Source: a virus
IMG/VR virus record: IMGVR_UViG_3300022751_000017
Location: 27,187-91,186 of that record
Strand: one strand, 5' to 3'
Length of the DNA: 64,000 nt
Shown: positions 913 through 52,697 of the stretch, one piece after another
How the letters are laid out: every line of letters starts with the position of its first letter
Numbering within the stretch: position 1 is the stretch's first letter
The notes under the pieces: generated by a model
What the model saw: the letters and a program-made list of their open reading frames with translations, nothing else
Told to the model about the DNA's origin: nothing
Database searches by the model: none
Made by a program: the position numbers and the translations under genes

Positions 913-1566
913 ATGAAGAAGCCACTAATTGCTATCCTGGCGCTGCTCAGCACTGGGGTAAAAGCGCAGGATATTGCGCCAAAGAATCACACCAAAAATC
1001 AACACGTATTTGAGATATATGCAAATTACGGCATAGGGTTAAGTACATCCATGTCCGGGAATGCACTTTCTAATACTACAAATGAAAAATGGACAATTAA
1101 AGATGTTCCGTCCTATTCTGGCGGAGCCTCCATTTACATCATAAAGAGGCTGAATGTCGGTATATCTGCGCGCTCGTCTGTGTGGAATACGACATCTAAG
1201 CTAAGCGACAATATTACGGGTCCTACGGTATCTCCCAGGGTTACTACAGGCAAGACTTCGGTACTCTCTGTTTCTGCCTTTGCAAATTATAATCAGCCCA
1301 TTGGTAAAGGTGTTATCTATGTCGGAGGATCTGTTGGGTATGCCATTGCCAATGGTGACACGAAGCATCTTGCCAAAGGGAAAGGCCGCGATATGAATGG
1401 CCATATAGGCTATGCTCATCCTGTAGTAGGCCAAATATTATGGGTCACAGCTGAAGCCGGTATGTCCCAGGCAAAGATCACTCCCGATGGTCAGGTATTC
1501 TCGATAAAGCGAATATATTCTGTCACTAACTATCCGGTTTCTCTTGGATTAAAGGTCAGGATTTAA
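913..1566 (+). CDS. Outer-membrane beta-barrel protein (small OMP-like)
   Basis: Sec signal ending VKA|Q; amphipathic Gly/Tyr-rich strands; C-terminal strand YPVSLGLKVRI. Confidence 0.7.
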   Translation: MKKPLIAILALLSTGVKAQDIAPKNHTKNQHVFEIYANYGIGLSTSMSGNALSNTTNEKWTIKDVPSYSGGASIYIIKRLNVGISARSSVWNTTSKLSDNITGPTVSPRVTTGKTSVLSVSAFANYNQPIGKGVIYVGGSVGYAIANGDTKHLAKGKGRDMNGHIGYAHPVVGQILWVTAEAGMSQAKITPDGQVFSIKRIYSVTNYPVSLGLKVRI

Positions 1567-9716: not shown

Positions 9717-11336
9717 TTATTTTTCTGGAACTTCCACTATTGCGCATTCAGTTGTTAGGAACATCCCGGCAACGGAGCTTGCATTTTCCAGGGACACACG
9801 AAGAACCTTAGCTGGATCTATAACGCCAGTGGCCAATAAGTCTGCATATTCATTTGTTTTGGCATTGTATCCAAAGTTGGGCGCCATTGATGTGCAGATA
9901 TCATATTTTATAGACGATATTTCAGATTGAGTGATGCCGGCGTTTTTTAGTATCTGTATCAAAGGTGCGGCCAATGATTCTACTATAAGATTGTATCCAT
10001 GCACTTCATCTGTAGATTTTGATGAGGTATCTCCTATTGAGTTCTGAGCTTTCAGATAGGCTATGCCGCCACCAGGCACTATACCTTCTTCCAAGGCGGC
10101 CTTCGTAGCACACAGTGCGTCATCTACGCGATCCATCTTTTCTTTCACCTCTATCTCACTGAATCCACCTACATTAATGACCGCCATACCGCTAGTGAGC
10201 TTGGCCAGACGTACCTCCATCTTAGGCCTTTCATAAGCGGTGATCTCTGTTCCATTGATGATGCCGCGGAGTTCTTCGGCTCGTTCAGATATTGCCAATT
10301 GATTGCCTCTTCCGCCTATTATAGTGGTGCTATCACGACCAACAACCACTTTTTCTGCTGACCCCAGCCATGCGTGTGTGCAGTCCTTAGGCTTCATGTT
10401 AAGGTCTTTATCTATAACCGTTCCACCTACCTGGATGGCGATGTCCTGCAGCATTTCTTTCTGAGCCCCGCCGTATCCAGGCATACGTATAGCGCATGCT
10501 TTAATATTGCCTCGGACAGTGTTTATACTAAGGGTTGAGAGGGCTTCGCTGTCGGCATCGCTGCATATAATCAGCAATGAGCGCTTCTTGTCAGGTGTAG
10601 ATCCTTTAGTGCATATTTCCATCACGCTTAGTATGTCAGTGAATGTACTTAGCTTATCCGGGCAAAGCATGATCAGTGGGTTGTCCAATATTGCTTCTGC
10701 TTTTGGCTTATCTGTTATGAATGCCGGGCTCAGATATCCTTTATCAATAGAAAGTCCGGATACTACTGACACAAATGTATCGGTGCTGCGGGACTCCTGT
10801 TTTTGTATCAGTCCATCATTACCTACGCGCAGGACTGCATCAGCTATGTGTTTACCTATTTCTTCATCATTGTTCGCAGATATGGTAGCAATGCTGAGTA
10901 CTTCCTGGCTGTCATTGGCTATCTGCTTTGCCTGTAGCTTAATATTAGCTACAACATCGGCTACGGCATTGTCCATACCACGTTTTAGTTCTACTGGATT
11001 GGCGCCATTGGCAACAAGCTTCATGCCCTCAGTAATGAGGTATTGGGTGAGCACTGTTGATGTGGTTGTACCATCACCGGCTTCGCCTGCGGTTTTACGC
11101 GCTACCGCCTTGATCATCTGTGCTCCGCTATCCTCATAAGGATCTGATAATGTCCTGACGTTCTGCGCCACGGTAACACCATCCTTAGTTATGAATGGGT
11201 TCTGGCCACTATTTTGCTGTATGGTAACATTGCGTCCTTTAGGACCCAGTGTTACTTTTACTGCATCAGCTACCTTGTCTATGCCTGCCTTCATTTTGTT
11301 CCGGGCATCGGAATTAAATTGCAATTGTGTGCTCAT
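9717..11336 (-). CDS. groEL: Chaperonin GroEL (phage-encoded)
   Basis: VKVTLGPKGRNV, ITKDGVTVA, AGDGTTT, EEGIVPGGG and GVIDPAKV motifs; no GGM tail. Confidence 0.98.
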   Translation of the reverse strand: MSTQLQFNSDARNKMKAGIDKVADAVKVTLGPKGRNVTIQQNSGQNPFITKDGVTVAQNVRTLSDPYEDSGAQMIKAVARKTAGEAGDGTTTSTVLTQYLITEGMKLVANGANPVELKRGMDNAVADVVANIKLQAKQIANDSQEVLSIATISANNDEEIGKHIADAVLRVGNDGLIQKQESRSTDTFVSVVSGLSIDKGYLSPAFITDKPKAEAILDNPLIMLCPDKLSTFTDILSVMEICTKGSTPDKKRSLLIICSDADSEALSTLSINTVRGNIKACAIRMPGYGGAQKEMLQDIAIQVGGTVIDKDLNMKPKDCTHAWLGSAEKVVVGRDSTTIIGGRGNQLAISERAEELRGIINGTEITAYERPKMEVRLAKLTSGMAVINVGGFSEIEVKEKMDRVDDALCATKAALEEGIVPGGGIAYLKAQNSIGDTSSKSTDEVHGYNLIVESLAAPLIQILKNAGITQSEISSIKYDICTSMAPNFGYNAKTNEYADLLATGVIDPAKVLRVSLENASSVAGMFLTTECAIVEVPEK

Positions 11337-11363
11337 ATTTTGGTTGTGGGATAAAAATGAAAA

Positions 11364-13049
11364 TTATTCTTCAGTAAAGGTAAGCAGGTCGTTTTGGTGC
11401 ATCACCAGATGCTCGACACCATCTATAGCGATCTCTGCGCCGGCCATGCGTTTAAAGTACACGACATTACCCTCTGATACTATCATAGGTATCTTATCGG
11501 TGCCTGGGCCAACTCTTATAACTCTGCCTTTTACAGGGCGCTCCTTGGCATCCTCTGGAAGTATCAGGTGTGATTCTTTCTTATCTTCTATTGGCAGGAT
11601 AAGAACTTTGTCTCCGAATGGCGTGTGTATTGTGTTGCCCATGTCGTCTTTGTGTGTTTTAAGTAAAATAAAATGTTCGTGTGCTATTATGAAGTTCTCT
11701 CCCAGCAGCGTTATTGGGTATAGTTCCTTAAATGTTGCTACTATCTTTCGGTTACCTTTAATCGGGGTGCAAATGACAGCATGATTCTTATTGACATAGG
11801 CAGCTTTCTCAAGCGCATCCGTCTTTAGTCCTTCTATGCTCGTTTCCAATGCTTGCAATTCTTCTTTCTGTGCAGGGTCTGCAGGGTTAAGCATGCGGTG
11901 CTTGTTGGATAAGCGCTGAAATGTAGCAGTGTACTTACCTGCACCTTCTTTCTTCTTTTCAGCTATTATATTCTGAAGTGCCGGCAGTGTTTTTATATCA
12001 TTGAACGTATAGTCCATGTTATGCAGTTCAGACCTTGGGATTTCTTTTTTCTCAAAAAGTTCAATCTCTGGCTTAAGAAATATGTTCCTGTCAAATGGTT
12101 TGATAGTGCTCAGCTGTGGTATTGGGTTTGTGGATAGATTATTCCTGGATTCCATCATCCCGAAGATTTCTCTTCCGTCATGTGAGAAACAGTTGATCAT
12201 AATGTACGCATACTTTGATTTTCCATCTTTGCCTTTTTTCTCTCGGAGCATGCGGTACTGCTGGTGCTCTACCGTGTGATGGAGTATCGCAAAGCAGCCA
12301 GGGCGAAGCTTAGGGTACATCTTGGCTGCTTCTGAACCTATGCTGACAACTTTAGCATACTGCAGGTTGTACATCATGTGTATATATGCCTCCGGGCGTA
12401 TCAGGCCACTTGCCATTTCAAACCGGCTGCGCTTCTGCTCATTGATGTCTACGCGTACTATTATTTTGTGTGGCGCAGCCTTTTCATTTACTGAGTATAT
12501 ATCACGCTCAAATAATACTTCCATGATGCGGCCATCGACATTAGCTGTGGGGTACATGCCTTGTTCTGCCTTCCTGTATTCTACTGTATCCCCTACCTTA
12601 AATAAAGAGCCTGGAGGGACCGCATGTATTATTCCTTTTTGAGGGACCCCCAGCGTTTCGTCAGGAATGATGATACCGCCATCGCTCACCATTTTGCCAG
12701 ATAGTGGTTCAATGAATAGCCGGTTGAATGGAGTATTATCAACCGACCATATTTCGTTCTCAAAAAGCAGGTCCAGTTCTTCTCCTGCTATCTCTATTCC
12801 GCTGTACCGCTCCTCCGGGTTATTGCGCTCGATCTTGCGATAAGATACGTGTGCACCCACCGGTATTTCTGAGCCTTCGCAGTTGGAAATAACGACACCG
12901 GTTTCGCAAACCACATTTGCATCTTTTGGTATTTCGATACCGTGCTGGTTTACCACTGCAGGATGTTCGTCCGGGCGCACGATAAGGCGCCTTGATATTG
13001 CTCCGCTATTGTTGATGTAGGGGATGCTGGTTAAATTATGTGTGTGCAT
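11364..13049 (-). CDS. groES: Multi-domain (five-repeat) GroES/Cpn10-like co-chaperonin
   Basis: C-terminal canonical Cpn10 (PFGDKVLI...LILP...GRVIRVGPG...IDGVEHLVMHQNDLL), preceded by four degenerate repeats (RRLIVRP..GIEIP; NRLFIEP..GGIIIP; HKIIVRV..SGLIRP; IKPFDRNIFLKP); directly upstream of groEL. Confidence 0.88.
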   Translation of the reverse strand: MHTHNLTSIPYINNSGAISRRLIVRPDEHPAVVNQHGIEIPKDANVVCETGVVISNCEGSEIPVGAHVSYRKIERNNPEERYSGIEIAGEELDLLFENEIWSVDNTPFNRLFIEPLSGKMVSDGGIIIPDETLGVPQKGIIHAVPPGSLFKVGDTVEYRKAEQGMYPTANVDGRIMEVLFERDIYSVNEKAAPHKIIVRVDINEQKRSRFEMASGLIRPEAYIHMMYNLQYAKVVSIGSEAAKMYPKLRPGCFAILHHTVEHQQYRMLREKKGKDGKSKYAYIMINCFSHDGREIFGMMESRNNLSTNPIPQLSTIKPFDRNIFLKPEIELFEKKEIPRSELHNMDYTFNDIKTLPALQNIIAEKKKEGAGKYTATFQRLSNKHRMLNPADPAQKEELQALETSIEGLKTDALEKAAYVNKNHAVICTPIKGNRKIVATFKELYPITLLGENFIIAHEHFILLKTHKDDMGNTIHTPFGDKVLILPIEDKKESHLILPEDAKERPVKGRVIRVGPGTDKIPMIVSEGNVVYFKRMAGAEIAIDGVEHLVMHQNDLLTFTEE

Positions 13050-13498: not shown

Positions 13499-13586
13499 CA
13501 CTGCAACTCTTACAAATTGCAGTGTCAGTTCTCGCTGACTTAATCCCCAACTGTGGCACTGGTTGGGGATAATTTTTTCTTTAGTA

Positions 13587-13667: not shown

Positions 13668-14159
13668 ATGTCTGCATATAAGAAAGTCACAGCCCCCGTT
13701 CTATGGGATAATGATAGTACATTCCAGGGTGGAAGGTACTACACTGTAAGTTCTTCTGCTATAGTAGTAGGAACTGTAAATAAGCCAACTGGTCCTGTTA
13801 TCCCAGGTGTGAGAACAATACCGGCATTAGTGCCTACGCTGCAGATAAAAGACCCGGAGTATAATGACCTATACCTTGCCATGACCTTTGAAGAGTGGAT
13901 AGCATTAGTAGGTATGGCCAACGGGAGTGCCGGGATACCGGAGTCAGTGACATTCACAGGCGGTGATACAATACCTGCCGGCAATACAATATCATCTCCG
14001 CTGCTTAAAAATATTATTATTCTATCGGTAAACAAGAGCGGCATTAGCATTTACAATTACGTTTACACTAATGGATCTCCGAATGGCACGCTGAATCTAA
14101 CAGCAGATGGTGGATTGGCCGTGGATGAAAAAATACAAATAATCTATAAAAGGGCGTGA
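13668..14159 (+). CDS. Putative virion structural protein
   Basis: Beta-rich 163 aa; first gene of the fibre/lysis operon. Confidence 0.55.
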   Translation: MSAYKKVTAPVLWDNDSTFQGGRYYTVSSSAIVVGTVNKPTGPVIPGVRTIPALVPTLQIKDPEYNDLYLAMTFEEWIALVGMANGSAGIPESVTFTGGDTIPAGNTISSPLLKNIIILSVNKSGISIYNYVYTNGSPNGTLNLTADGGLAVDEKIQIIYKRA

Positions 14160-15883
14160 TGAGAATTATACTGTTGATGTTGTCTTTATTGCTTGTTAAT
14201 TCTCTGTCTTTCGGGCAAATAACTCCTTTTGGTAATAAAAATGGTACCGTGGAGGTATTGGGTGGATTACAGGCTGACAGCGCCTTGGGTATACCGGTTG
14301 TTCCAAAAGGGTATACCGGTTTTCAGAAAGGCATCACCACTACGGCCAGGCTGATTGCGGATATTAATGATACAATGCTGTATTTTATGCGCAAGGGCGT
14401 GTCTGTAAGGACACTCACGCAGTTTGATAGTAATATACTGTATCCAACCCTATTTTTCGTTCGTAATAATTATATCCCCTCGTTCTTTATGGGTGTATCT
14501 AATGGAGTAGCTACACTGGATGCTACCGGGCGTGTGCCTATTGCGCAGATCCCAGCTTACCCTATCGGTACGACATATGTAGCAAGCAGCCTTCCTGAAA
14601 TGTTGGCGTTGCCGGCTACGGTAGGATCCCTATGTGTAAGAACAGATAGTAATTATAGTTTCTCATTGGCCGCTCTGCCGGCTACATCTTATGCGAATTG
14701 GGTTAGGTTGCTTTTCCCTGCTGTGATGTCTTTTAATGGGCGAATGAATGTGGTGACACCTCTGAAGGGTGACTATAATACGGACTCTGTGCTTGAGGGC
14801 CCCATAAACAAATACTTCACAGCAGCCAGGGCACAAGCCGAGATTGTAGCAGATACACCCACGTTCCTTGCTACCAAAAGTAATATTTCTATGCTTACCA
14901 GTGCTACCGGGCAAACTCTTTTGGGTAGATACTCTGCTTCTACGGGCGCTGCGCAGTTTATAACCATAGGTTCGGGTCTTACACTTAATACAAGTACGGG
15001 CGTGCTTTCAGCTACCAATACCGGGAGTGTGACCAGTGTTACAGGGACAACGAACAGGATTACTTCTACTGGTGGCGCAACTCCTGTGATAGATATATCT
15101 GCCCTGTATGTGGGCCAGACCAGCATAACTACACTGGGTACAATAGGTACAGGCACATGGCAAGGTACGGCGATTGCTAATGCATATATTGCCAATCCAC
15201 AGGTTACAGTGAATGGTTCGGCAATATCGCTCGGCGGTTCCGCAACCATATCCGCGGCGCCTAACGGAGCTGCCGGTGGTGATCTTACCGGCACTTATCC
15301 TAATCCAACGCTGACAACCAGCGGCATTACACCGGGCACTTATGGCGGTGCTTCAGCAATCCCTGTTATTACATATAATGGTAAGGGAATTGCCACCAGT
15401 ATTACTACTGTGTCGGTATCAGGAGGTGGCGGATCAGGCGTGACGAGTGTGACATCTACGGATGGCAGCTTATCTGTTACGGGCACAACTATAGTGAATG
15501 TAGCGGTCGCCCCGGTGCCTGTATATACTATAACAGAAACAAGGGCTTTTACGGTTACAGCAACCAATGGCCATGAGCAGCAGGTGACGCTTAATCACAA
15601 CAACCCGACCGATACAATTACATTGGCAGGATTTGGTCCAACAGCTGCCGGTGGTGCCGGGTTCATCAATCAGGTTGTGTTGAACATATACCAGGACGGT
15701 ACAGGTGGTACGGCGGTTTATATAGCCGGTACGAATATACTGATACCCATGAACGGCACCAGCAGGTTAATGCCTGTATCAACCACGGCTAATGCCCTGG
15801 CTGCCCAGTGGGTACTTACCTGGGATAAGCAGCTAAGCAAAGTAAGAGTTCTCTATACCTCAGATTTTATAACACCGCCATGA
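14156..15883 (+). CDS. Tail-fibre-like protein with N-terminal Sec signal peptide
   Basis: Signal ...NSLSFG|Q; fibre motifs GVATLDATGRVP, EGPINKYFTAARA, YVGQTSITTLGTI, GGDLTGTYPNP. Confidence 0.75.
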   Translation: MMRIILLMLSLLLVNSLSFGQITPFGNKNGTVEVLGGLQADSALGIPVVPKGYTGFQKGITTTARLIADINDTMLYFMRKGVSVRTLTQFDSNILYPTLFFVRNNYIPSFFMGVSNGVATLDATGRVPIAQIPAYPIGTTYVASSLPEMLALPATVGSLCVRTDSNYSFSLAALPATSYANWVRLLFPAVMSFNGRMNVVTPLKGDYNTDSVLEGPINKYFTAARAQAEIVADTPTFLATKSNISMLTSATGQTLLGRYSASTGAAQFITIGSGLTLNTSTGVLSATNTGSVTSVTGTTNRITSTGGATPVIDISALYVGQTSITTLGTIGTGTWQGTAIANAYIANPQVTVNGSAISLGGSATISAAPNGAAGGDLTGTYPNPTLTTSGITPGTYGGASAIPVITYNGKGIATSITTVSVSGGGGSGVTSVTSTDGSLSVTGTTIVNVAVAPVPVYTITETRAFTVTATNGHEQQVTLNHNNPTDTITLAGFGPTAAGGAGFINQVVLNIYQDGTGGTAVYIAGTNILIPMNGTSRLMPVSTTANALAAQWVLTWDKQLSKVRVLYTSDFITPP

Positions 15884-16725
15884 TCCGCCTACTCATTATA
15901 TTGCTATTTATAGCAACCAATTCATTTGGGCAGGCTCAGCAAGTGCCAGCCCAGACGCAACGGTTCATGTCCACACTTAATGCTGTAGGGTATGCGCCAA
16001 CGCTGCCAAATTTCAGGGATGCTTACTACTTGGGCATGCATCTATACGGCAATGTGACTCACGAGGGCCAGGTATATGTGGAGACAGATACGTTGCTGTT
16101 CTACTATTTCCCATATATAGGAAATACATCTGCGGCTTTGAGGGTTGATTTCATAACGTTGGCTTCAGGGTCATTCGTTGGTGGAGTTACCATCGGAACT
16201 GATGCATGGAATGGGAATGGGTCTTCAGGGTATTTCAATACGACAATTACGCCACCATCTAATATTGGCAGCTATCATCTTGGTGTATATTCCTTCACAA
16301 ATGAAGCGGCTAACACAAAAGTTGATATAGGTAACTCTACGGGCAATTCAATTGCGCATAGATTCCTGATAAAAACCACGCTGGTGGCTAATCCATGCTT
16401 TATGCTTGCACTATCCATGTCGGCCTCGGTGCCTACCAGTGCGCTGCAGAATGCCCCGGCATCAACAATAGGCCTTTTCATAGCAGCTAGATTAGCCTCA
16501 AACACTTCATTAGTTCAAGGATTTAAGGATGGTGTTGCTCTCCAGGCGGCATCTAATAATGCACCTACAACCGGCACTATTGGGGTGTCTTGGGTAGGGC
16601 ATGACCAATCTGCGACTTTTGGCTACAGCACAAAATCATATGGTGTTGCATTTGCCGGTAAAGCACTTACGACACCCCAGATATTAAGTCTTTCTCAAGC
16701 AGGAACATATAAAGTAACAAAATGA
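15880..16725 (+). CDS. Secreted beta-sandwich (lectin/LamG-like) protein
   Basis: Signal ...TNSFG|Q; GNGSSGYFNT-type motif; beta-rich. Confidence 0.55.
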   Translation: MIRLLIILLFIATNSFGQAQQVPAQTQRFMSTLNAVGYAPTLPNFRDAYYLGMHLYGNVTHEGQVYVETDTLLFYYFPYIGNTSAALRVDFITLASGSFVGGVTIGTDAWNGNGSSGYFNTTITPPSNIGSYHLGVYSFTNEAANTKVDIGNSTGNSIAHRFLIKTTLVANPCFMLALSMSASVPTSALQNAPASTIGLFIAARLASNTSLVQGFKDGVALQAASNNAPTTGTIGVSWVGHDQSATFGYSTKSYGVAFAGKALTTPQILSLSQAGTYKVTK

Positions 16726-17339
16726 AAAAATACATCTATCTGCTGTTAATGATATTGGGAAGTGCCCAGCACACTTTCGCACAGGCGCCACCACCACAAT
16801 ATTGGATAATAATCCCCCCGGACTTTGCTTTATCCATGCGTGATAGCATTGGCTGTAGCGGTGGTTGCGTATTTGCATGCGCAGTGGATACGTTTGGGCG
16901 GTATATAGTGGATACATCTACCTCCCATTATTTTGAGGCAGCATTCGATACGATGTATGCGCATACAGGTGGGAGGCATATGGAACTGATCAATTACTAC
17001 CAGATATGGCAAGGTGATCCTTACCAGGGCCAGATGCTGGTGGACATGCATATAAAAGTAAGGGATGGGTATATCCCACAAAAGGATACTGCAACAATAT
17101 CAGGGAGCACAACCTATGTTCTACCGGCGGGGCGAGTGTTGCTACTATACAGGATAGTGCCGTCAGGGAGCACAACGATCACGGTAGGGTTGACACCCGG
17201 AGGGGATGAAATATTCCCAGCTACTACCACCAGTCAGCCATTGACATTGCAATCCGGCATAACGTTCGATACAAATACAACTATTTATATAACCGTTACA
17301 GGAGGTACATCTTGTAGACACATTCGCCTTAAAGTATGA
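16722..17339 (+). CDS. Secreted hypothetical protein
   Basis: Signal ...HTFA|Q; C-terminal beta domain (VGLTPGGDEI). Confidence 0.6.
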   Translation: MKKYIYLLLMILGSAQHTFAQAPPPQYWIIIPPDFALSMRDSIGCSGGCVFACAVDTFGRYIVDTSTSHYFEAAFDTMYAHTGGRHMELINYYQIWQGDPYQGQMLVDMHIKVRDGYIPQKDTATISGSTTYVLPAGRVLLLYRIVPSGSTTITVGLTPGGDEIFPATTTSQPLTLQSGITFDTNTTIYITVTGGTSCRHIRLKV

Positions 17340-18256
17340 GAAACATATTCATAACCGTTATTACCGTAGTTTGTGTCTGTATTGCGGCATTCATTTATAT
17401 TACGGCCAGGACAGAAGCTCCGGCGCATGCGCAGACATCTGTGTATATGACAGATGTTCTGAAGCTGGGGTCAAAAATGGCTACATCACTCAGTGACGAT
17501 ACTACCGGTGCCAACTGGACTACTCAATCACTAATTGAGGGCTATGCAATCAAGCGATATGTCGCAGGAAGGGTTGCTGCGACTGTAGCCTTGATACCAA
17601 CCAACAATAATACGCTGTCCAATGGTGCCGGTTATATTACCGCAAGCTCAGCCTCGGCACTGACCAATAAGAGCGGGAATATATCTATGTGGACGAATGA
17701 CATAGGCTATATTACCGGCATAACAAATGCCCAGGTGGTATCTGCTTTGGCGTATACTCCTACACCTACAACCCGGAATCTCACTATAAATGGCTCTACT
17801 CAGTCATTGGCCTCTGATAGAACATGGACATTGACTACTGCAACTGTGGCGGAGAGTGGTAATCTATATTATACTGATACACGTAGTAGAGCAGCTGTAT
17901 CTTTGACTACTACCGGTACCGGAGTTGCGACTTATAATCCTGCTACAGGTGTACTAAATATTCCGGCACCAAATTCCTACAAAATACCTGTACCTTATTC
18001 TGGAATTACTAATGGGTCTGGAGATTATACAGTTACATTTCCGGTTTCTTATTCAGTAGCTCCAAATATACAGGCTAATATAGTAGGTGGTACTGACTTG
18101 CAGCGATCCACAATAACCACAATAACAACTACTGGATTTACAGTACATGTTGTTGTGCAGAATACTACAACCGTTGCGCTTGTAGGTCTTGTGCTTATAC
18201 CCGGAACTGCTGCCGTGGTTGGAGCTAAGGTAGATGTGCTTATAACTGAGAAATAA
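17336..18256 (+). CDS. Tail-fibre-like protein with signal peptide/anchor
   Basis: Hydrophobic N-terminus then AHA|Q; fibre motifs IPTNNNTLSNGAGYIT, TNDIGYITG, ESGNLYYTDTR; C-terminal VTFPVSYSVAP domain. Confidence 0.7.
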   Translation: MRNIFITVITVVCVCIAAFIYITARTEAPAHAQTSVYMTDVLKLGSKMATSLSDDTTGANWTTQSLIEGYAIKRYVAGRVAATVALIPTNNNTLSNGAGYITASSASALTNKSGNISMWTNDIGYITGITNAQVVSALAYTPTPTTRNLTINGSTQSLASDRTWTLTTATVAESGNLYYTDTRSRAAVSLTTTGTGVATYNPATGVLNIPAPNSYKIPVPYSGITNGSGDYTVTFPVSYSVAPNIQANIVGGTDLQRSTITTITTTGFTVHVVVQNTTTVALVGLVLIPGTAAVVGAKVDVLITEK

Positions 18257-18287: not shown

Positions 18288-18614
18288 ATGTGCAAAGCAA
18301 CTCGTTTAATGAAGATTAAAGATTTCAACCTGTTTTCAGATGATGTGACAGGAATTAATGGTGATGGCATACCAGTAGGCAAGCTGCCATTTTTGCTTGC
18401 CGCATACCCTACTATGTTTGCTATAGCACCAGATACTGATGGTCAACCTACATTATTTGCGGAGGTGCCGGTAGGTGAAGGCTTGACGTTGAACACTACC
18501 TCTATGGATCGCGTGGCTACTGAGGTACATTCTGTAGAATTTAATGGTGATAATGTACCACTGCTTATCAGACTATTTGGTGCATGGACTAAGCCAAAAC
18601 CTAAAGTATCGTGA
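18288..18614 (+). CDS. Hypothetical protein (start may be 18309)
   Basis: ORF in the operon. Confidence 0.6.
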   Translation: MCKATRLMKIKDFNLFSDDVTGINGDGIPVGKLPFLLAAYPTMFAIAPDTDGQPTLFAEVPVGEGLTLNTTSMDRVATEVHSVEFNGDNVPLLIRLFGAWTKPKPKVS

Positions 18615-18937
18615 GGAGATGGGAGCCATTTGTCTGGTGGGGTGTTCTTGCATGTGGGTTCCTCATGGAATATTATAAGGGAACTGACAAAGTCCCTGTT
18701 TTTGATGCCATGGGGAGTGCAATGTTGATTTTTGTCGGACTATTTGGGAAAAACAACAATCTTGTAATTGCATGGTATATATTATTCTTAGGGATAGGCA
18801 AGGCATTTGACGCAATACAATACCCTTATTTACAAATAGATCATAATGTAGCAGAGATAGTTAACATTATATTTAGCACGATTGGAGCGATAATACTATG
18901 GATTAGGAGAAATTATCACCATGATACAACAACATAG
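18611..18937 (+). CDS. Membrane protein, about 4 TM segments (holin/antiholin candidate)
   Basis: Hydrophobic; within the lysis cluster. Confidence 0.5.
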   Translation: MRRWEPFVWWGVLACGFLMEYYKGTDKVPVFDAMGSAMLIFVGLFGKNNNLVIAWYILFLGIGKAFDAIQYPYLQIDHNVAEIVNIIFSTIGAIILWIRRNYHHDTTT

Positions 18938-19310
18938 AAGAATGGATACTCCTAAAGCCCATGTTACAGATATATTAATGAGGATACTTGCATGGGCCTG
19001 GATGGTTTTACCTCCGGTGATTATAGGTAATCTCACACTATGGTCTGCAATGGAGGTTTCAGAGAAACGCTTATCCTGGAGAGGCAGGTTTTTCATAGTT
19101 CTAGGATCTCTAGGTCTTGCATCAGTGATGCATAGGGTTTGTGAAACGTACCAGCTGCAAAGGCATGAGTGGATATGTATATTCCTTATAAGCTTCGTGA
19201 GCCAGCATATCCTAAAATTTGCCTACGCTGAATTGGGTGGCATAATGAAGGATGCGGTAAGAGCGCAGCTGCAGCGATTTGTTAAGGGTCTTGATAAAGA
19301 AAAAGAATAA
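18921..19310 (+). CDS. Holin-like membrane protein
   Basis: 3 TM segments and a charged C-terminal tail. Confidence 0.55.
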   Translation: MIQQHRRMDTPKAHVTDILMRILAWAWMVLPPVIIGNLTLWSAMEVSEKRLSWRGRFFIVLGSLGLASVMHRVCETYQLQRHEWICIFLISFVSQHILKFAYAELGGIMKDAVRAQLQRFVKGLDKEKE

Positions 19311-19321
19311 AAACAATAATC

Positions 19322-19657
19322 ATGCATAGTGACTTAACTTTACTGGGTCTTGGAATGGCAGGGGTGTTATTGCACTGTCTTATCAAGATAAGCAAATTAA
19401 AAAAGACGAATAGTTTCAAGTTCGCTACCTATTTTAGTATGGAGTGGCCGACCATATGTATATCAGCTATAGTTGTCGCTATAGCCATAGTGTGCAAGCA
19501 TGAGGTTACTCAGCTGGATCAGGCGAAAAACTGGCTCGGTATCGGGTTTGTATCTATTGGCTATATGGGTCAGTCCATATTGATAACCGTGATGGGTCGT
19601 GCAGAAGCTATATTGACAAGAAAAAAAGAAGAAATTGAAATTAAAACAGGTCTATGA
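19322..19657 (+). CDS. Holin-like membrane protein
   Basis: 3 TM segments and a charged C-terminal tail; just upstream of the spanin. Confidence 0.55.
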   Translation: MHSDLTLLGLGMAGVLLHCLIKISKLKKTNSFKFATYFSMEWPTICISAIVVAIAIVCKHEVTQLDQAKNWLGIGFVSIGYMGQSILITVMGRAEAILTRKKEEIEIKTGL

Positions 19658-20229
19658 GATACATTACAGATAGAGCTTACTCCAGGTTATTATTGTTCGC
19701 ATGCTTGTTTGTAGCGGTGGTAGTTGTTTTTGCCTCATGTAAAGGAACGAAGGACTACGCTACTGCATTTGATCAACTGAAGAATAAGGCTGAAGCGAGC
19801 AAGGTTGATGATGATCATGCCATACCGGCTGCGAAGTGCGCTGCGTGGTACCCTGTTCATACTAAGATAGTGACATTGCCGGCTCGTATAATAAAAGGTA
19901 AAAGTGACACAACGGTATTGCCGGGAGAGGTACGATATGTAGATTGCGACAGCGTTAAATCTGCTAATGGCAGTAGCAAGGTAGTTGTGAAATGTCCTCC
20001 GGCTCAAATTGTGCATGATATAGACACTGTAGTGAAGGAGACTATAAAATTGGTAGAGAACACAGCGCGAGTGCATGAGCTTGAAGTGAAGTTGTCCAAT
20101 ACAGAAAAAAAATCGGAGAGTATGTACCAGTCTCTGAAAACTTATAAAAAGGTTAGTGCATGTGAGGGAATAATTCTTGCGCTCATTGGTATTTACGGGG
20201 TATACAAATTATACAATAAAGTAGTCTAA
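19654..20229 (+). CDS. Putative unimolecular spanin (lipoprotein plus C-terminal TM)
   Basis: Lipobox FASC after a hydrophobic signal; periplasmic region; C-terminal TM IILALIGIYGVY. Confidence 0.65.
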   Translation: MRYITDRAYSRLLLFACLFVAVVVVFASCKGTKDYATAFDQLKNKAEASKVDDDHAIPAAKCAAWYPVHTKIVTLPARIIKGKSDTTVLPGEVRYVDCDSVKSANGSSKVVVKCPPAQIVHDIDTVVKETIKLVENTARVHELEVKLSNTEKKSESMYQSLKTYKKVSACEGIILALIGIYGVYKLYNKVV

Positions 20230-20243
20230 AATATAAATCTAAC

Positions 20244-20891
20244 ATGAGAAAGTCATTCACGGTTCTTGCATGGCAGGATAGCGCTGGTACATTTTTCCCT
20301 GCGGGTGCTCAGCGGACTATTAGCTGCGATCATATTAATGAGGGTAATTACGGATTGGCACTAAATGGGCAGATAACCAAATTGCCTACAAGTACGGTAC
20401 CAATAGGGTTTACAGGCACTGACTTTCAGCACCAGGTGGCAAGCATACACCCAGGCACTTTACTAAGCGATCCTACAGCGTATACAAATTCCAGCTTTAA
20501 GGTTGTTACGAGGGTGAAAGACTTGTCCAATAACAATGTTACGTATGTCGATGCAGCTGACTACCTGGCTAAATTTGGTGATTGCAATAAATGCTGCACA
20601 CCGATCAACTGCACACCGATATTGAATGTGCGTACTACAGCATTGGGTACAACTACCGCGACTGTTGCATGGGATGCGTCAAGCCAGGCTACAGTGTATG
20701 AATATGTGAATGTCATAAGGTCTGGCTCATGTGTTACGCCAGCCGGCACCGGCACTATAACCACGGCCACGAGTGTGTCATTTACCGGACTTACAGGCGG
20801 GTCGGTTTATTGTTTTGCGGTAAGGCAGCGATGCAGCGCCACAAATTTTAGTGCATGGACATTGTTCCAATATACCACTGTAGCGCCTTAA
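20244..20891 (+). CDS. FN3-domain virion/decoration protein
   Basis: C-terminal TTATVAW...YEY...GLTGGSVYCFAVR...SAW fibronectin type III pattern. Confidence 0.7.
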   Translation: MRKSFTVLAWQDSAGTFFPAGAQRTISCDHINEGNYGLALNGQITKLPTSTVPIGFTGTDFQHQVASIHPGTLLSDPTAYTNSSFKVVTRVKDLSNNNVTYVDAADYLAKFGDCNKCCTPINCTPILNVRTTALGTTTATVAWDASSQATVYEYVNVIRSGSCVTPAGTGTITTATSVSFTGLTGGSVYCFAVRQRCSATNFSAWTLFQYTTVAP

Positions 20892-20900
20892 AATATTAAT

Positions 20901-21407
20901 ATGGCGACTTCAATAGGTTATTTAAAGGGTATGCTTCTGGATACGGATATTAAGGCCGTACTAAGAACCATCAGGCGCGGCGAAGGTACCATAGCGCCTG
21001 ATGGTTACAGTTATTTATTCGGCAGCTCGCCAAAAAATAACAGGCGCTTTACTGATTTTTCTACGCACCCCAATCAACGCTTTACCTTCACCATAAACGG
21101 TGTTACAAATATCACAAGCGCTGCCGGAGCCTACCAGATATTAAAGAAGACATTTGATACCCTTTGCTTCAAATATGGGTTTAAAGACTTCACGCCGCAG
21201 ACGCAGGATTTGATGGCATTGGCTCTTTTCGATACCCGTGGATGCCTCAAGGCTGTAGCAGATGGAAATTTCTTCGACCCTGAAATAATGGACCGGTTGA
21301 ACAATGAATGGGCCAGTCTTCCGATGGCCGGATACGGACAGCCTGAAAAGAGCATGGACCAGGTAAAGAGGTGGTACATTATGGAAGGTGGAATTATAGC
21401 TAAATAA
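20901..21407 (+). CDS. Endolysin, lambda R-like lysozyme/transglycosylase
   Basis: IRRGEGT, HP, SAAGAYQIL, DFTPQTQD and EWASLP motifs. Confidence 0.93.
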   Translation: MATSIGYLKGMLLDTDIKAVLRTIRRGEGTIAPDGYSYLFGSSPKNNRRFTDFSTHPNQRFTFTINGVTNITSAAGAYQILKKTFDTLCFKYGFKDFTPQTQDLMALALFDTRGCLKAVADGNFFDPEIMDRLNNEWASLPMAGYGQPEKSMDQVKRWYIMEGGIIAK

Positions 21408-25889: not shown

Positions 25890-27464
25890 ATGATAACCTA
25901 CGCTTTAACTCCCCAGCATGCTCCACGTCAGATATTTTCCGTTGGTGAGGCACAGACTCAGTTCCAGCCGTTCTCAGATGTCTACAGGCAACTGTGGGAT
26001 TTCGTGGAAGATGGCGGATTAGATGCCTTCGGGATAAACAAGGAAGACCTGGCGCGTTGGCGTAAAAACTTCCGTGAGGGAGTGGTGAACATTGGTGGTA
26101 AGCCATCAGAGATAGACTTCTTCCGTATGATGATGGGTGGCACTCCTAAGGAGACAAACGCCTCTTCAATCAGCGTAGAGTATAACAGTGCGTTGGACTA
26201 CAACATATACGCAGAGAATGATGCTACCGGCACCAACGGCGCTGTCACCAATGCATACTTTGGAGACCTGATAAACGGCACTTACAATGGTAACTACGTG
26301 GTGTTCGACATTGCGGTTGATACTTATGCAGATAACGGTACCAAGTCCAATATAAATGTTGGCGACCAGATATTCAACTACATAGATGGTAAGTATCTGG
26401 TGGTGATCAAGAAGGATGTAACCACTCCTTTTGCGCACCATATCTACTGCGCACCTTTCGATGGTAACTATACGCCTCAGATATATGCGAAGCAGCCAAT
26501 GCAGCCCAACCATATACAGCTGGTGTCTGGTTATAGCGATGCTACTACATCTGCGCCGCACAGTGAGTGGGAAACCCTCGGTTACATCAAGGAGTATAAC
26601 CCATTCTCTCTTCGTACAGACTGGGAAACACCGCGTAACCTGGAGAAGCCATACAAGGATATTCTGCAGTTCCCGATCATATTCGATATGCATACCGGTG
26701 CAGAGATGGACTCATGGGACTTCAAAGCGATGGCTGATGGCCGCGAGCGTATGATCATGGGTGAGAACATGATGTTCTTCACAGGTGAGCAGCTGACCAA
26801 TGTAAGCCTGATATCAAATACATATACAAACCAGTATAACGGTTTTGAAGGGCTTCTGACCACCATCTGGTATGGCGGCGGCAATATACAGCAGTATGAC
26901 AATAGCTATGGTTACGACCTGGATGTTGACTTCATGCAGATGGTATTCTCAAACGATGCACTGAAGAAATCTCAGGAGTTCCTGTTCCTGGCCGCAAAGC
27001 GCTGGATATACATGATGGAGCGCCGTAGCCAGGATATGTTTAAGAATAACTCAGGGGCATGCACTTTTGATACGTTTGAGCGTATGGGTGATGAGCGTGC
27101 CGATCTGAAGCGCCTGGGCATCAACTCATACGAGTGGAGAGGTTCAACAATGCATATCAAGGAAGTCGGTGCATGGTCTGACAGCCGCTGGGTAGGTAAT
27201 GCTTATTTCCCCGCTATGGCTATAGTTCTGCCAGGCGATGGTCTTACAGACAGCAAGGGCAATAAAGTATCTCCGGTTGAGTACTGGATACCAGCAGGCC
27301 GTAGAGTGTCTGGAACATGGCAGGAAGAGTGGAGAGACCACATGAAGCTTTCAGATAAGGCTGATAAGTTCTCAGGTACCATTACTCATGACATTATGAT
27401 GAGCGTGAACGGAGTGGAAAATATGTGGGCAGTGATGCCGAAATACATTGTGAGCAATTCTTAA
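25890..27464 (+). CDS. Major capsid protein (HK97 fold, crAss-like)
   Basis: 524 aa; position; ENMMFFTG...GFEGLLTTI..GG motif; strongly C-ending codon bias suggesting high expression. Confidence 0.8.
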   Translation: MITYALTPQHAPRQIFSVGEAQTQFQPFSDVYRQLWDFVEDGGLDAFGINKEDLARWRKNFREGVVNIGGKPSEIDFFRMMMGGTPKETNASSISVEYNSALDYNIYAENDATGTNGAVTNAYFGDLINGTYNGNYVVFDIAVDTYADNGTKSNINVGDQIFNYIDGKYLVVIKKDVTTPFAHHIYCAPFDGNYTPQIYAKQPMQPNHIQLVSGYSDATTSAPHSEWETLGYIKEYNPFSLRTDWETPRNLEKPYKDILQFPIIFDMHTGAEMDSWDFKAMADGRERMIMGENMMFFTGEQLTNVSLISNTYTNQYNGFEGLLTTIWYGGGNIQQYDNSYGYDLDVDFMQMVFSNDALKKSQEFLFLAAKRWIYMMERRSQDMFKNNSGACTFDTFERMGDERADLKRLGINSYEWRGSTMHIKEVGAWSDSRWVGNAYFPAMAIVLPGDGLTDSKGNKVSPVEYWIPAGRRVSGTWQEEWRDHMKLSDKADKFSGTITHDIMMSVNGVENMWAVMPKYIVSNS

Positions 27465-29584: not shown

Positions 29585-31972
29585 ATGCCAGCACTACCAA
29601 TTACAACATCACCTGATATTACATCGCTTAATTTCGGGATACTATACGATATCTCTGCCGGTACGCCGTCAATTACACTGACTAACTTATCCGTGGGTAA
29701 TCCATCCGGATCTACCCGGCTGAATAATTGTACCTGGTGGTATAAAATATACTCTCCTAATGGTGTAGCTATTCATGAGGGTTCTGAATCTACACCGGAT
29801 GTTGATAATAATACATGGTCAACATTGACAATCCCTGCAGGTTCATGGCCAACGCCTTTCGGTATACCTCCATATGGGCAGGTTGAGTTCAGCTGCGCAG
29901 TGCCATATGTGGCTACATTGTTTGTAAAGGACGGTGTAGGCAACATATACAGTACGGCACCCAAGTCAACACTTCTGTGCCGGCCAAATGGCAATACCGA
30001 TAAGACAAAGGGGAACTTTGGCGCAGCAGAAGTGGGAATGCAGACACAGTGTGCCCAGGCAAAAATATATTCTTCAGATACCACCAATTACACTTATCAG
30101 GGCATAATTGGTAGTTCACAGGCGAGTACCTGGACGCTTGCATATCCAATGGATGCGGATGGTAATCTGCCTGACCCTGTAGTAGTCCTTAATAAGCCTA
30201 CGGTAATATTCCCTGTAGGATATAGCTCTGAAGGTTACCAGCTATATCTCAATACATTTTGTACATACAATACAGGCGACAATGGCGCCGTAAAAATACA
30301 GTACAAATTTAAGGAAGTGTTCTCTGTATTCTGTAATGTAGACCTGTGTGCTATACAGTGTGAAATAGACAAGCTATATGCACAGCTGTCACCTAAATGC
30401 GGTACTGTGACCAATCCTGAATTGCAGGACAGGCTGTTCCGTATAGGTGTGCTAATGGATAAGTGCCTTACTGGCATAGCACAGCCTTTATGCGGCATAG
30501 ACGTACCGGCAACCATACAGGAGATAAAGCGCATAGGTTGCTTTGACTGTGATTGCATGTGCGGTACAGGAGGGGGGATCAATCCGGTAGGGAATACTAC
30601 GGGCATAATCACTTTCGACACAGAAACGGTAGGTGATATCACCGCAGTTATAACCAATGTAGGTGACAACTATCTCTTGCATCTGGAAGTGCCGAATAGT
30701 GGAGGTGTTCCTAATCTGCAGCAGGTAAGCCAGGTAGGTAATGTGACCAACAGGCCTTTATATAGCGGAGTGCAGGCATCATATTATTCAAGTATTGCCT
30801 CAAGAAATGTAAATGTCGCCAATGGTGCGGACATCCTTATTGCACTTGATAGCTCTACAGGTACCAATTACCTGCGTATAAAGGGTGCTACATCTGGTAT
30901 TGTTCAGCTTACAGCTGCAGATGTTACTACCCCATATACTATGAAGCTGCCAGCGGCGCAAGGTACCGGGTATTTGAAGAACCCGGGAGATGGGTTGCTT
31001 GTGTGGGATGCAAGTGGCGGCGGCGGATCTCAGAACCTGCAGCAGGTTACTACTGTAGGCAATGAAACTACCAACCCTATAAACCTTAAGGGTGCAGGAA
31101 CAAAGCTTATGCAGCTAACATCAGGCGGGTTTGCTGTATACCAATCTACCGGTGACCTGTGGGCTGGGCTTGATACATCTCTGGGGATAGCAAGATTTAT
31201 CTTGAGGGGAGGCGCCGCAGGTACAGGAACTGTTAATATGCAAGCGCCGAGCGCAATATCCGCTTCGTATGACTGGATATTCCCGGCTGCGCAGGGAGGC
31301 GCTAATACGTTGCCGCTGAATGATGGTACGGGCCAGCTGTCATGGTGGCTCGCAAATTTACAGAATGTAACAAATAATGGGTCAATAACAACAAATACGA
31401 TCACAGTAGGTGCCTCTGCAGGTTCTAATGCAAAGCTATCTGCGACTGATGTGACAGTGTATAATGCTTCTGTCGTTGTTGCTAGATTGTTAGGGGTAGG
31501 AGGTATTGGTATTTTGACATTAAGAGAATTCACTGGGTTCATTGTCAACTTGAGGGCAGACCCCGGCGGGATGACTTCTAATTTGGATTTTTTCTTCCCG
31601 AGATTTAAATCTGGCACATTGGCATTGAGTGGTGCCGGAACTGCTGTGACCTTTGCGTTGAATGTCGGTGCCGGCACTGGTGCCACTGTAGTAGATAATT
31701 TATCAAATGATAACGGTGGATCTTTCACAATTACAACAGGTACAAGTCCTGCAGTAGGGAGGGTCATTTTAGTATCATACTCTATGACATATCCTACAAC
31801 ACCGTATAGGCATGTTGTGATATGCCCTGGTAATGCTGCTACGGCAGCGTTAAGTGGCGCGCAGAATGTATATGCGAATGAAGGCTCTTTGAATAGTTTT
31901 GAAATTATATCCGGTGCCACCCCATTGGCTGCAAGTACAGTATATCGCTGGAATTATGTAGTTAGTAACTAA
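29585..31972 (+). CDS. Tail fibre/hub protein
   Basis: Cys-rich attachment domain, then three NLQxVxxxGxxT fibre repeats and a beta-rich tip. Confidence 0.7.
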   Translation: MPALPITTSPDITSLNFGILYDISAGTPSITLTNLSVGNPSGSTRLNNCTWWYKIYSPNGVAIHEGSESTPDVDNNTWSTLTIPAGSWPTPFGIPPYGQVEFSCAVPYVATLFVKDGVGNIYSTAPKSTLLCRPNGNTDKTKGNFGAAEVGMQTQCAQAKIYSSDTTNYTYQGIIGSSQASTWTLAYPMDADGNLPDPVVVLNKPTVIFPVGYSSEGYQLYLNTFCTYNTGDNGAVKIQYKFKEVFSVFCNVDLCAIQCEIDKLYAQLSPKCGTVTNPELQDRLFRIGVLMDKCLTGIAQPLCGIDVPATIQEIKRIGCFDCDCMCGTGGGINPVGNTTGIITFDTETVGDITAVITNVGDNYLLHLEVPNSGGVPNLQQVSQVGNVTNRPLYSGVQASYYSSIASRNVNVANGADILIALDSSTGTNYLRIKGATSGIVQLTAADVTTPYTMKLPAAQGTGYLKNPGDGLLVWDASGGGGSQNLQQVTTVGNETTNPINLKGAGTKLMQLTSGGFAVYQSTGDLWAGLDTSLGIARFILRGGAAGTGTVNMQAPSAISASYDWIFPAAQGGANTLPLNDGTGQLSWWLANLQNVTNNGSITTNTITVGASAGSNAKLSATDVTVYNASVVVARLLGVGGIGILTLREFTGFIVNLRADPGGMTSNLDFFFPRFKSGTLALSGAGTAVTFALNVGAGTGATVVDNLSNDNGGSFTITTGTSPAVGRVILVSYSMTYPTTPYRHVVICPGNAATAALSGAQNVYANEGSLNSFEIISGATPLAASTVYRWNYVVSN

Positions 31973-47509: not shown

Positions 47510-48403
47510 ATGAAAATGTCACCATTAGTTATCAGTTTTTCAGGTGGTCGCACAAGCGGCATGATGACGAAATTGTTACTCGATAAATACAGAGGGAAAC
47601 GGGAGATAGTCGTAATATTCTCAAATACCGGCAAGGAGTACGAGGAAACACTGCAATTTGTACATAACTGCGACACGTATTTCGGTTTTAATACCGTATG
47701 GATTGAGAGTGTACAGAACCACGGCCAGCGTAAAAGCGCAGGATATAGGGTTGTTTCATTTGAAACCGCTGACCGAACTGGCGCACCATTCGAGGACATG
47801 ATTAAAAAACATGGCATACCCAATAAGCCTTTCCCGCATTGTAGCCGGGAGCTTAAAAATAAGCCCACTCTCAATTACATAAAAGAAGTGCTTAAATGGG
47901 ATTGGTACGAAATAGCGTTAGGTATGCGTATTGACGAACCCGCAAGGCTCACTGTTAAAGAAAATGTAGGTTACCCAATGGCTTACGAATGGCCGACAAC
48001 TAAGCTAATGGTAAATAAATGGTGGCTTAAACAACCATTTGATTTAGATATGTCTCGCTTTACAGGCGGTACACCATTCCCTGAATACATGGGTAACTGC
48101 GATAGATGCTGGAAGAAATCAAAGAGAAAATTACTAACACTTGTAAAGGAAGGGGCGCATCGGAATGATTGGTGGAATGACATGGAAATAAAATACGGGC
48201 ATTTCGTGCCTGAAGGGCAGAAAGAAAAAAGGATAGTTCCGATAACATTCTTTCGAGAGAATGAAAGCATGCAAGACCTTATAGAAGATTGTAAGTTCCC
48301 TTTTGAAAAAGCATCAGATACATTCACACTTCAACAGCTTATGTTTTCGGATCCGGAATTAGATTTTACTGATGGATGCGAAGAAAGTTGCGAAGCATTC
48401 TGA
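47510..48403 (+). CDS. PAPS-reductase-family (PP-loop) protein, phage type
   Basis: ISFSGGRTS PP-loop; FSNTGKE; CSRELK; GMRIDE; GNCDRCWKK; C-terminal GCEESCE. Confidence 0.88.
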   Translation: MKMSPLVISFSGGRTSGMMTKLLLDKYRGKREIVVIFSNTGKEYEETLQFVHNCDTYFGFNTVWIESVQNHGQRKSAGYRVVSFETADRTGAPFEDMIKKHGIPNKPFPHCSRELKNKPTLNYIKEVLKWDWYEIALGMRIDEPARLTVKENVGYPMAYEWPTTKLMVNKWWLKQPFDLDMSRFTGGTPFPEYMGNCDRCWKKSKRKLLTLVKEGAHRNDWWNDMEIKYGHFVPEGQKEKRIVPITFFRENESMQDLIEDCKFPFEKASDTFTLQQLMFSDPELDFTDGCEESCEAF

Positions 48404-52325: not shown

Positions 52326-52697
52326 TTACTGGTTTTTAATACGTTTAAAATCTCTACAATCCCCCATCCTGTCAAGATATTTACTAAATGCATATTTCGC
52401 ACTACAGCTATCATTGAACAATGCTATATCGCCTCCCATTTCTTCATAAAAGCAGTATCCAAGATCATTAACACTTCTCATGATGCGAGTTCCTAGTTCC
52501 CCCCTGTATATAACCGCATATTTTCGCCTACATTCACTATATTCTATTTGCGTTTCTACAGGCATTTTAAAATCACATGAATATATGCACTCATTGTTTT
52601 CTACGGTATCAACCGATTTTGCGGGTTCAATATTTTGATTTGTTCTGCATCCGCTCACCGTCACGGCAAGCAGTAGTAATGTTAGTGTGTATTTCAT
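52326..52697 (-). CDS. Lipoprotein
   Basis: Lipobox VSGC after a hydrophobic signal. Confidence 0.65.
   Translation of the reverse strand: MKYTLTLLLLAVTVSGCRTNQNIEPAKSVDTVENNECIYSCDFKMPVETQIEYSECRRKYAVIYRGELGTRIMRSVNDLGYCFYEEMGGDIALFNDSCSAKYAFSKYLDRMGDCRDFKRIKNQ

Follow-up and report, generated by a model that had tools for sequence, protein, structure and literature searches.

Tailed phages, in the textbook picture, are assembled wholly in the cytoplasm. A locus from an uncultured virus raises the question whether some of their fibres may instead pass through the envelope of the host. This locus is a cassette of four consecutive genes, encoding what we call proteins 1 to 4, in IMG/VR record IMGVR_UViG_3300022751_000017; the DNA analysed, hereafter the window, is a stretch of 64 kb (positions 27,187 to 91,186 of the record) out of a 91-kb viral contig with a completeness estimate of 70%. 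A previous sequence-only reading had noticed that the four products start with Sec (general secretion) signal peptides followed by Gln and had proposed that they are exported to the periplasm, where they would either join virions at lysis or act as released decoys or surface adhesins. Our best reading, to which we give about an even chance of being right, is that the four are exported virion appendages, joining the particles around lysis. The coordinates of the features discussed are collected in Table 1.

The four consecutive open reading frames (ORFs) are as described in the sequence-only reading, and the N-termini that it quoted agree exactly with the ORF translations. Leaders were called by inspection of the n-, h- and c-regions and by their conservation in homologues. 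The n-regions are short and positively charged (MR-, MIR-, MKK- and MRN- in proteins 1 to 4, respectively), the hydrophobic cores comprise 10-13 residues in proteins 1 to 3, where about 7-15 are expected, and 19 in protein 4, and the predicted cleavage sites, SFG↓Q, SFG↓Q, TFA↓Q and AHA↓Q (the arrow marks the cut), combine small residues at -3 and -1 with a Gln at +1 in all four. This pattern at the three positions recurs in the homologues P0059, P0244, P0267 and P0147. The leader is MKKILFLTIFIALSSIAIA↓Q in P0059, the closest full N-terminal relative of protein 1, and MRYTLIVLMLIFSTCAHA↓Q in P0267, the only relative found for protein 3; among the relatives of protein 2, it is MKLIYAILLFALPASA↓Q in P0244 and MRQLIILLLFCSTSYG↓Q in P0249. 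P0147, a relative of protein 4, displays a long hydrophobic stretch and then TAHTETPAHA↓Q, the pattern ITA(R/H)TE(A/T)PAHA↓Q being conserved between the two. The closest homologues of the four proteins are 41-51% identical to them, and the build of the leader is kept throughout. In proteins 1 to 3 the leader itself shares only 4 of 19, 6 of 17 and 4 of 20 positions with that of the closest homologue, against 41-47% identity over the first 120 mature residues (55/120 for protein 1 and P0059). Since the sequence of the leaders has diverged and their build has not, selection seems to act on the property rather than on the sequence. To judge from these comparisons, the four consecutive leaders of Sec/signal peptidase I type, each followed by Gln, appear to be real; that of protein 4 is atypical and could be a signal-anchor.

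The position of the start codons bears on whether these segments are translated at all. The ATG starts of the four genes all overlap the preceding stop, an arrangement of translational coupling. At the 1/2, 2/3 and 3/4 junctions this is a 4-nt ATGA overlap, as the sequence-only reading had it; at the first junction it is a 1-nt overlap (TGATG) with the stop of the upstream 163-aa gene, for which reason the ATG at 14159 is a more likely start for protein 1 than the GTG at 14156 proposed before, the ORF itself being correct. One could nevertheless imagine that the leaders are not functional, either because the true starts lie downstream of the hydrophobic segments or because these are not cleaved, so that the proteins would be ordinary cytoplasmic virion fibres. 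Bacteroidota genes lack strong Shine-Dalgarno sites, which makes starts hard to call; a public protein collection has protein 3 only from Met10, inside the leader (P0266, 196 aa, with 16722-16751 dropped); and the hydrophobic stretch of protein 4 has the length of a transmembrane (TM) helix. However, in all four genes the first in-frame start past the hydrophobic segment is 22-39 codons downstream, and its use would break the stop-start coupling and leave gaps of 60-115 nt of open frame that happen to encode canonical leaders. Conservation of the leader build in each closest homologue despite divergence, and the occurrence of the host-specific Gln at +1 in more than 50 further relatives, also argue against non-functional leaders, which we regard as very unlikely. 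The Met10 start of P0266 suggests, rather, that a gene caller picked a downstream start by mistake.

How exceptional is such a run within the window? Of the 81 window ORFs a loose leader heuristic flagged 7, including three from the cassette; protein 4 escapes it, owing to a long c-region, and the run of four therefore depends on protein 4 being counted by eye. With seven flags permuted among 81 ORFs, a run of four or more has a probability of P = 0.0016. As a background, the same heuristic flagged 7 of 488 internal protein segments. In the capsid/tail block (24792-46641) none of the ORFs has a signal peptidase I type leader followed by Gln.

Gln at +1 of signal peptidase I substrates, the Q-rule, is specific to Bacteroidetes (PMC5837995), and the large terminase (TerL) of the phage, whose closest cultured relatives are those of Cellulophaga and Flavobacterium phages, points to a host of Flavobacteriia type. 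Because the leaders are conserved, in each closest homologue and in many relatives, the starts are coupled, the Gln at +1 fits the Q-rule and TerL is of Flavobacteriia type, we consider export of the four proteins, as proposed by the sequence-only reading, to be highly probable, and it is very likely, on this same sequence evidence, that their maturation takes place in the periplasm and not in the cytoplasm. As for their further fate, searches of the four proteins against Pfam/NCBIfam at E <= 0.1 revealed no C-terminal sorting domain of the type IX secretion system (T9SS; TIGR04183/PF18962 type), and none of them has the Cys at +1 of a lipobox; the possibilities that they are T9SS cargo or lipoproteins were rejected on these grounds.

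The four proteins differ in what can be said about their nature. Protein 1 consists of the leader, a conserved N-terminal module, a domain resembling minor tail proteins, fibre shaft repeats and a C-terminal domain. In tblastn, 133 phage records contain matches to protein 1 among their minor tail and tailspike proteins, phages of Arthrobacter, Gordonia, Rhodococcus, Xylella and Pantoea being represented, and its shaft repeats, which hundreds of fibre proteins share, have 820 relatives; P0059 shares its leader and N-terminal module, and P0025 its leader and C-terminal domain. Sequence searches of the PDB, with protein 1 among the queries, gave no matches. Protein 2, which has no sequence match in Pfam, comprises the leader, a helical hairpin, a jelly roll like that of concanavalin A and a C-terminal helix. 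An AlphaFold2 model from an 18-sequence alignment (pLDDT 81, pTM 0.84) superposes on carbohydrate-binding domain 4 of AbnA (Z score 16.5, root mean square deviation 2.8, 185 residues), on trans-sialidase lectin domains (Z score 15.7) and, over the full length, on the solved 269-aa tailspike 9vyh_p of cyanopodophage Pan3 (Z score 14.0, 227 residues); many phage proteins of about 270 aa also match it, with TM-scores of 0.70-0.76. The predicted fold is thus the concanavalin A-like lectin/glucanase jelly roll. Leader-bearing and leaderless members are mixed in the protein 2 family. Protein 3 is nearly an orphan: its mature part is rich in beta structure with four Cys, and its one relative, P0267, is 47-51% identical to it. 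Viral and metagenome contigs provided no relatives when searched with proteins 2 and 3 and their homologues. Protein 4 is made of fibre repeats and a strongly conserved tip (alignments A3 and A4) of about 85 residues at the C-terminus, the match of which to PF09458 (E = 0.014, 15.9 bits) is under the gathering cut-off of 24, whereas its homologue P0150 scores above it (25.2 bits). A single-sequence AlphaFold2 model of protein 4 was poor (pLDDT 40) except for an N-terminal helix at residues 2-26. The tip also occurs, by exchange, on leaderless fibre proteins of other phages. Sequence and model evidence together establish a fibre or lectin nature for proteins 1, 2 and 4, the shaft motifs noted by the sequence-only reading being those of proteins 1 and 4; for protein 3 there is no evidence of kinship with fibres or spikes. 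A virion-docking N-terminus common to such proteins, plausible by eye, was not supported by searches with hidden Markov models (HMMs).

Leaders on fibres of this type are not confined to the window. Among 119 homologues of protein 4 from databases, a leader and Gln at +1 were recognised in at least 57 and a lipobox in 3; the others are ordinary leaderless fibre proteins. We examined the loci of 18 homologues on viral contigs (the 15 best matches and three weaker ones): 10 bear a leader, nine of signal peptidase I type with Gln and one with a lipobox. In the related contigs read, the leader-bearing homologue of protein 4 comes after large leaderless genes in fibre position, and it is usually located directly before holin-like, endolysin and lipoprotein genes. 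As far as sequences tell, the leader-bearing fibre pattern is a trait of Bacteroidota phages, which fits the Q-rule (PMC5837995; PMC10653852).

What decides between virion proteins and other exported proteins? Two cultured Cellulophaga phages bear on this question. In phi18:3 (NC_021794), gp085, gp086 and gp087 start with MKNKITIIMILMSISFGYS↓Q, MKKTIYILSILLLTISGVSA↓Q and MKHTFSIVLFFILSIGLNA↓Q, and each of them is recorded as structural 'based on experimental MS/MS proteomics analysis' (tandem mass spectrometry, MS/MS); small membrane-protein genes and an endolysin gene are found downstream. In phi10:1 (KC821618), gp091 to gp095 are five consecutive genes with leader and Gln, followed by membrane-protein genes; four of their products are annotated from MS/MS and one as a pectate lyase. 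Across the two runs, MS/MS thus underlies a virion-protein annotation for seven of the eight leader-bearing products. Over its first 118 residues, which include the leader, gp086 has 82-83% identity to proteins of phi10:1, phi19:1, phi19:3 and phi13:2, and the remainder differs; from this comparison, the leader and N-terminus of gp086 look like a mobile module. The resemblance to the window lies in the arrangement, with consecutive genes for MKK-type leaders and Gln at the end of the tail/fibre region and TM-protein and lysis genes next to them, in the Flavobacteriia host and in the fibre- or spike-like character of the products, which in these phages include pectate-lyase-type spikes. The differences are that the proteins of phi10:1 and phi18:3 have no detectable similarity to the four proteins, and that virion presence is annotated from MS/MS there, whereas the window is known from genes. 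No paper was found in the literature on the leaders of the phi10:1 and phi18:3 proteins. Because the arrangement is the same in these two phages and its products are MS/MS-annotated, a virion location is favoured, and by this analogy we lean slightly towards incorporation of the four proteins in virions.

Several observations weigh against placing them there. TerL, at 24% identity, is the sole detectable similarity between the window and phi18:3, and in phi38:1, the nearest cultured relative by TerL, whose GroEL/GroES and late-operon layout is the same, the fibres are leaderless. Detection by MS/MS in purified virions is compatible with co-purified envelope material, and the annotations are silent on leader cleavage. 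HMMs of the mature N-termini of leader-bearing relatives match leader-bearing proteins and not the N-termini of leaderless fibres. The sequence-only reading mentioned a separate leaderless fibre at 29585: there is indeed a leaderless ORF of 795 aa (29585-31972), whose identity as a fibre was not confirmed by sequence searches of Pfam, PHROGs and the PDB, and this further large ORF could be the real receptor-binding protein. A role for glycosylation has weak support, the O-glycosylation sequon D[ST][AILVMT] being little enriched, with 9 observed against 4.6 expected from shuffles (6.6 per 1000 residues in the four proteins and 2.8 in other ORFs), and gp085 to gp087 of phi18:3 have one sequon apiece. 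Oxidative folding is no obvious driver of export either, as the four proteins have few cysteines. Finally, the cassette sits outside the main structural block.

This last point, together with the proximity of the lysis genes, would suit a different function, in which the four proteins are exported without being virion components and act in or on the envelope of the infected cell or escape when it lyses. They might exclude superinfecting phages, mask or bind receptor glycans, which would keep progeny from being trapped on debris, or remodel the surface of the host. Phage proteins that work in exclusion or in the envelope typically carry export signals, proteins with Q-rule leaders in Porphyromonas gingivalis phages have been read in this way (PMC10367356), and lectin-type domains are suited to glycan binding; moreover, most related contigs have, ahead of the leader-bearing gene, a leaderless one in fibre position, so that a conventional receptor-binding protein may exist already. 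However, a protein with neither lipobox nor T9SS sorting domain has no known route to the cell surface, which leaves the suggestion of a surface adhesin without a pathway, and a soluble protein freed at lysis needs no export. The suggestion of released decoys is unsupported, because a decoy carrying the receptor-binding domain of the phage itself should have a counterpart among its other ORFs, and none came up at E < 1e-3 when the four proteins were compared by blastp with every window ORF; the same was true of nine leader-bearing relatives set against their own neighbours. Besides, the analogous genes of phi10:1 and phi18:3 encode proteins detected in virions by MS/MS, and folds and domains of this kind belong to virion spikes and fibres. 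We regard a non-virion function as rather unlikely, but it is the chief alternative to virion appendages.

One could also think of a part in the lysis programme itself, as periplasmic regulators or effectors (an antiholin-like sensor of superinfection, or a helper binding to the outer membrane or cell wall) transcribed together with holin, spanin and endolysin. The cassette shares one tight operon with the TM-protein, spanin-like and endolysin genes, which come immediately after it, the protein 4 homologue is found just before the lysis cassette in most related contigs read, the N-terminus of protein 4 resembles an N-in/C-out anchor, and a periplasmic lysis regulator with a cleavable signal is known from T4, namely the antiholin RI (PMC8385771). 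However, no part in lysis is known for shaft repeats, a minor-tail-protein domain or a tailspike-like lectin fold, the tip of protein 4 is swapped with leaderless fibres of other phages, and the operon already includes a separate spanin-like gene, so that a lysis function for the four proteins is improbable.

Returning to exported virion appendages, the sequence of events might be the following. The four genes would encode proteins of host-recognition type, i.e. a pair of fibres, a spike protein of lectin-like type and one small partner, produced late alongside the proteins for lysis. They would be translocated by the Sec system of the host, signal peptidase I would cut before the Gln, and this residue would be cyclised to pyroglutamate in line with the Bacteroidetes Q-rule. 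The proteins would then fold in the periplasm, away from the capsids and tails being assembled in the cytoplasm, protein 4 perhaps being held at first in a form tethered to the inner membrane. Docking onto the particles would most likely have to wait for the opening of the inner membrane by the holin, or take place after release. We infer export, cleavage and late docking, the docking step being a conjecture. More generally, and tentatively, many tailed phages of Bacteroidota may possess Sec-exported fibres or spikes, capped with pyroglutamate and perhaps otherwise modified, that are attached after holin action, of which the window would be a four-gene example; we hold this with a little less than even confidence. 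If true, the final step of assembly would be tied to lysis, the fibres could gain modifications of the host envelope (pyroglutamate, possibly O-glycans or disulfides), and structural work or host-range engineering would need another way of expressing fibres. Gene callers that cut off leaders, as apparently happened with protein 3, would mislabel such genes, and annotation pipelines may be hiding these signals systematically. A leader with Gln at +1 would also be a ready marker of host phylum for uncultured phages.

Comparison with known systems shows where the novelty resides. No description of Sec leaders on tail fibres of tailed phages was found in the literature. The mosaic adhesive trimer (MAT) fibres of Bdellovibrio bacteriovorus are adhesins that resemble tail fibres, carry a signal peptide and are secreted (Caulton et al. 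2024, PMC10769870). They are similar in having, after the signal peptide, a domain of ~130 aa that is conserved and rich in beta structure, then a shaft and exchangeable glycan-binding tips (PMC10769870), but they are bacterial and stand on the predator's own surface, whereas the four proteins belong to an operon of lytic-phage type. The S74 chaperone domain was not found in any of the four proteins, and the likeness to MAT fibres is one of layout, with no homology shown. Llp of T5 and Cor of T1 and phi80 are small lipobox lipoproteins that bind the protein receptor. They are exported, as is predicted for the four proteins, and encoded beside host-recognition genes, and they protect the progeny and block superinfection (PMC9586334); the four proteins differ from them by their signal peptidase I type leaders, their large size and their fibre- or lectin-like character. 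Filamentous-phage g3p is a host-recognition protein of the virion with a Sec signal and maturation in the envelope (PMC8310372), but inoviruses are extruded at the membrane, while the phage studied here has a large terminase, tailed-phage genes and a lysis cassette. In Porphyromonas gingivalis phages, predicted signal peptidase I cleavage exposes Gln, and use of the general secretion pathway of the host was inferred (Matrishin et al. 2023, PMC10367356); the five genes concerned are unassigned in function, belong to temperate phages and were read as outer-membrane modifiers, with no fibre nature, tandem cassette or link to virions reported (PMC10367356). With regard to fibres, then, the claim of an undescribed route is a fair one, while Q-rule leaders on Bacteroidota phage proteins of unassigned function were already known (PMC10367356).

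Table 1. Positions of the features discussed. Coordinates refer to the window unless another record is named; arrows mark predicted cleavage.
Feature	Position	Strand	Remarks
ORF with leader and Gln at +1, the only other clear case in the contig	913-1566	+	MKKPLIAILALLSTGVKA↓QD
Phage GroEL and 561-aa neighbour	9717-13049	-	GroEL: phrog_5725, E = 1.7e-142
Terminator-like hairpin	13543-13570	+	11-bp stem, then T run; late operon with the cassette begins beyond
First gene of the operon, 163 aa	13668-14159	+	No leader, TM-like segment or family match
Protein 1 gene (P0001, 574 aa from ATG)	14159-15883	+	From ORF list
Protein 1 leader	14159-14215	+	MRIILLMLSLLLVNSLSFG↓Q
Protein 1 minor-tail-protein-like domain, residues 124-215	14525-14800	+	phrog_23595 'minor tail protein', E = 1.1e-9
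Protein 2 gene (P0002, 281 aa)	15880-16725	+	From ORF list
Protein 2 leader	15880-15930	+	MIRLLIILLFIATNSFG↓Q
Protein 3 gene (P0003, 205 aa)	16722-17339	+	From ORF list
Protein 3 leader	16722-16781	+	MKKYIYLLLMILGSAQHTFA↓Q
Protein 4 gene (P0004, 306 aa)	17336-18256	+	From ORF list
Protein 4 leader or signal-anchor	17336-17431	+	19-residue core, 10-residue c-region TARTEAPAHA↓Q
Protein 4 tip, residues 221-306, H-type-lectin-like	17996-18253	+	phrog_17509, E = 3.2e-7
108-aa ORF between cassette and membrane-protein genes	18288-18614	+	No hydrophobic segment or family match
Three small membrane-protein genes (108, 129, 111 aa)	18611-19657	+	3, 2 and 2 TM-like segments; holin/antiholin candidates
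191-aa protein	19654-20229	+	Lipobox-like N-terminus VVFASC↓K (LLFACLFVAVVVVFASC↓KG); C-terminal hydrophobic tail IILALIGIYGVY
215-aa protein	20244-20891	+	Weak FN3 match, Cys-rich CNKCCTPINC; between spanin-like gene and endolysin
Endolysin	20901-21407	+	phrog_90, E = 8.4e-34
PAPS-reductase-like gene	47510-48403	+	phrog_424, E = 1.2e-39; just upstream of terminase region
Lipoprotein-like ORF	52326-52697	-	MKYTLTLLLLAVTVSGC↓R
Lipoprotein-like ORF, outside the window	contig 19998-20786		MKKTIMALLSACVLLASC↓E
gp086-type leader and N-terminal module	L081:4545-4898; L082:6001-6354		Shared by Cellulophaga phages that differ in family and genome size
Paraflavitalea pollutisoli prophage-like region	L080:2552-6345		1057-aa protein with leader and Gln, then leaderless 202-aa tip-domain protein

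The genes of the late region are densely packed on the plus strand. The sequence-only reading had the cassette lead directly into the lysis genes; the common late operon is confirmed, but the connection is not direct, as a 108-aa ORF intervenes. The 191-aa protein, whose gene sits between the TM-protein genes and the endolysin gene, has no family match, and its layout suggests a protein like the unimolecular spanins.

Elsewhere in the window, the main structural ORFs have almost no matches in Pfam and PHROGs, and a DNA-level search with cultured phages gave no match. The 561-aa protein encoded beside the phage GroEL has GroES-like matches in more than one stretch (multi-domain GroES), and GroEL/GroES genes are present in Cellulophaga phages phi38:1 and phi18:3 too. 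The ORF at 913-1566, of 217 aa and with no family match, is distant from the cassette. Lipoprotein-like ORFs are few in the rest of the contig; the two listed in Table 1, from early or accessory regions, are candidate exclusion proteins.

A search of 185,579 species genomes turned up a single occurrence of the protein 4 tip domain, in Paraflavitalea pollutisoli (Chitinophagaceae). Membrane-protein genes are located downstream of the tip-domain gene in this region, after a few intervening ORFs, and the N-terminal motif IRNSAVDAFTN(L/V)RLNS recurs in a 97-aa ORF that follows the tip-domain protein.

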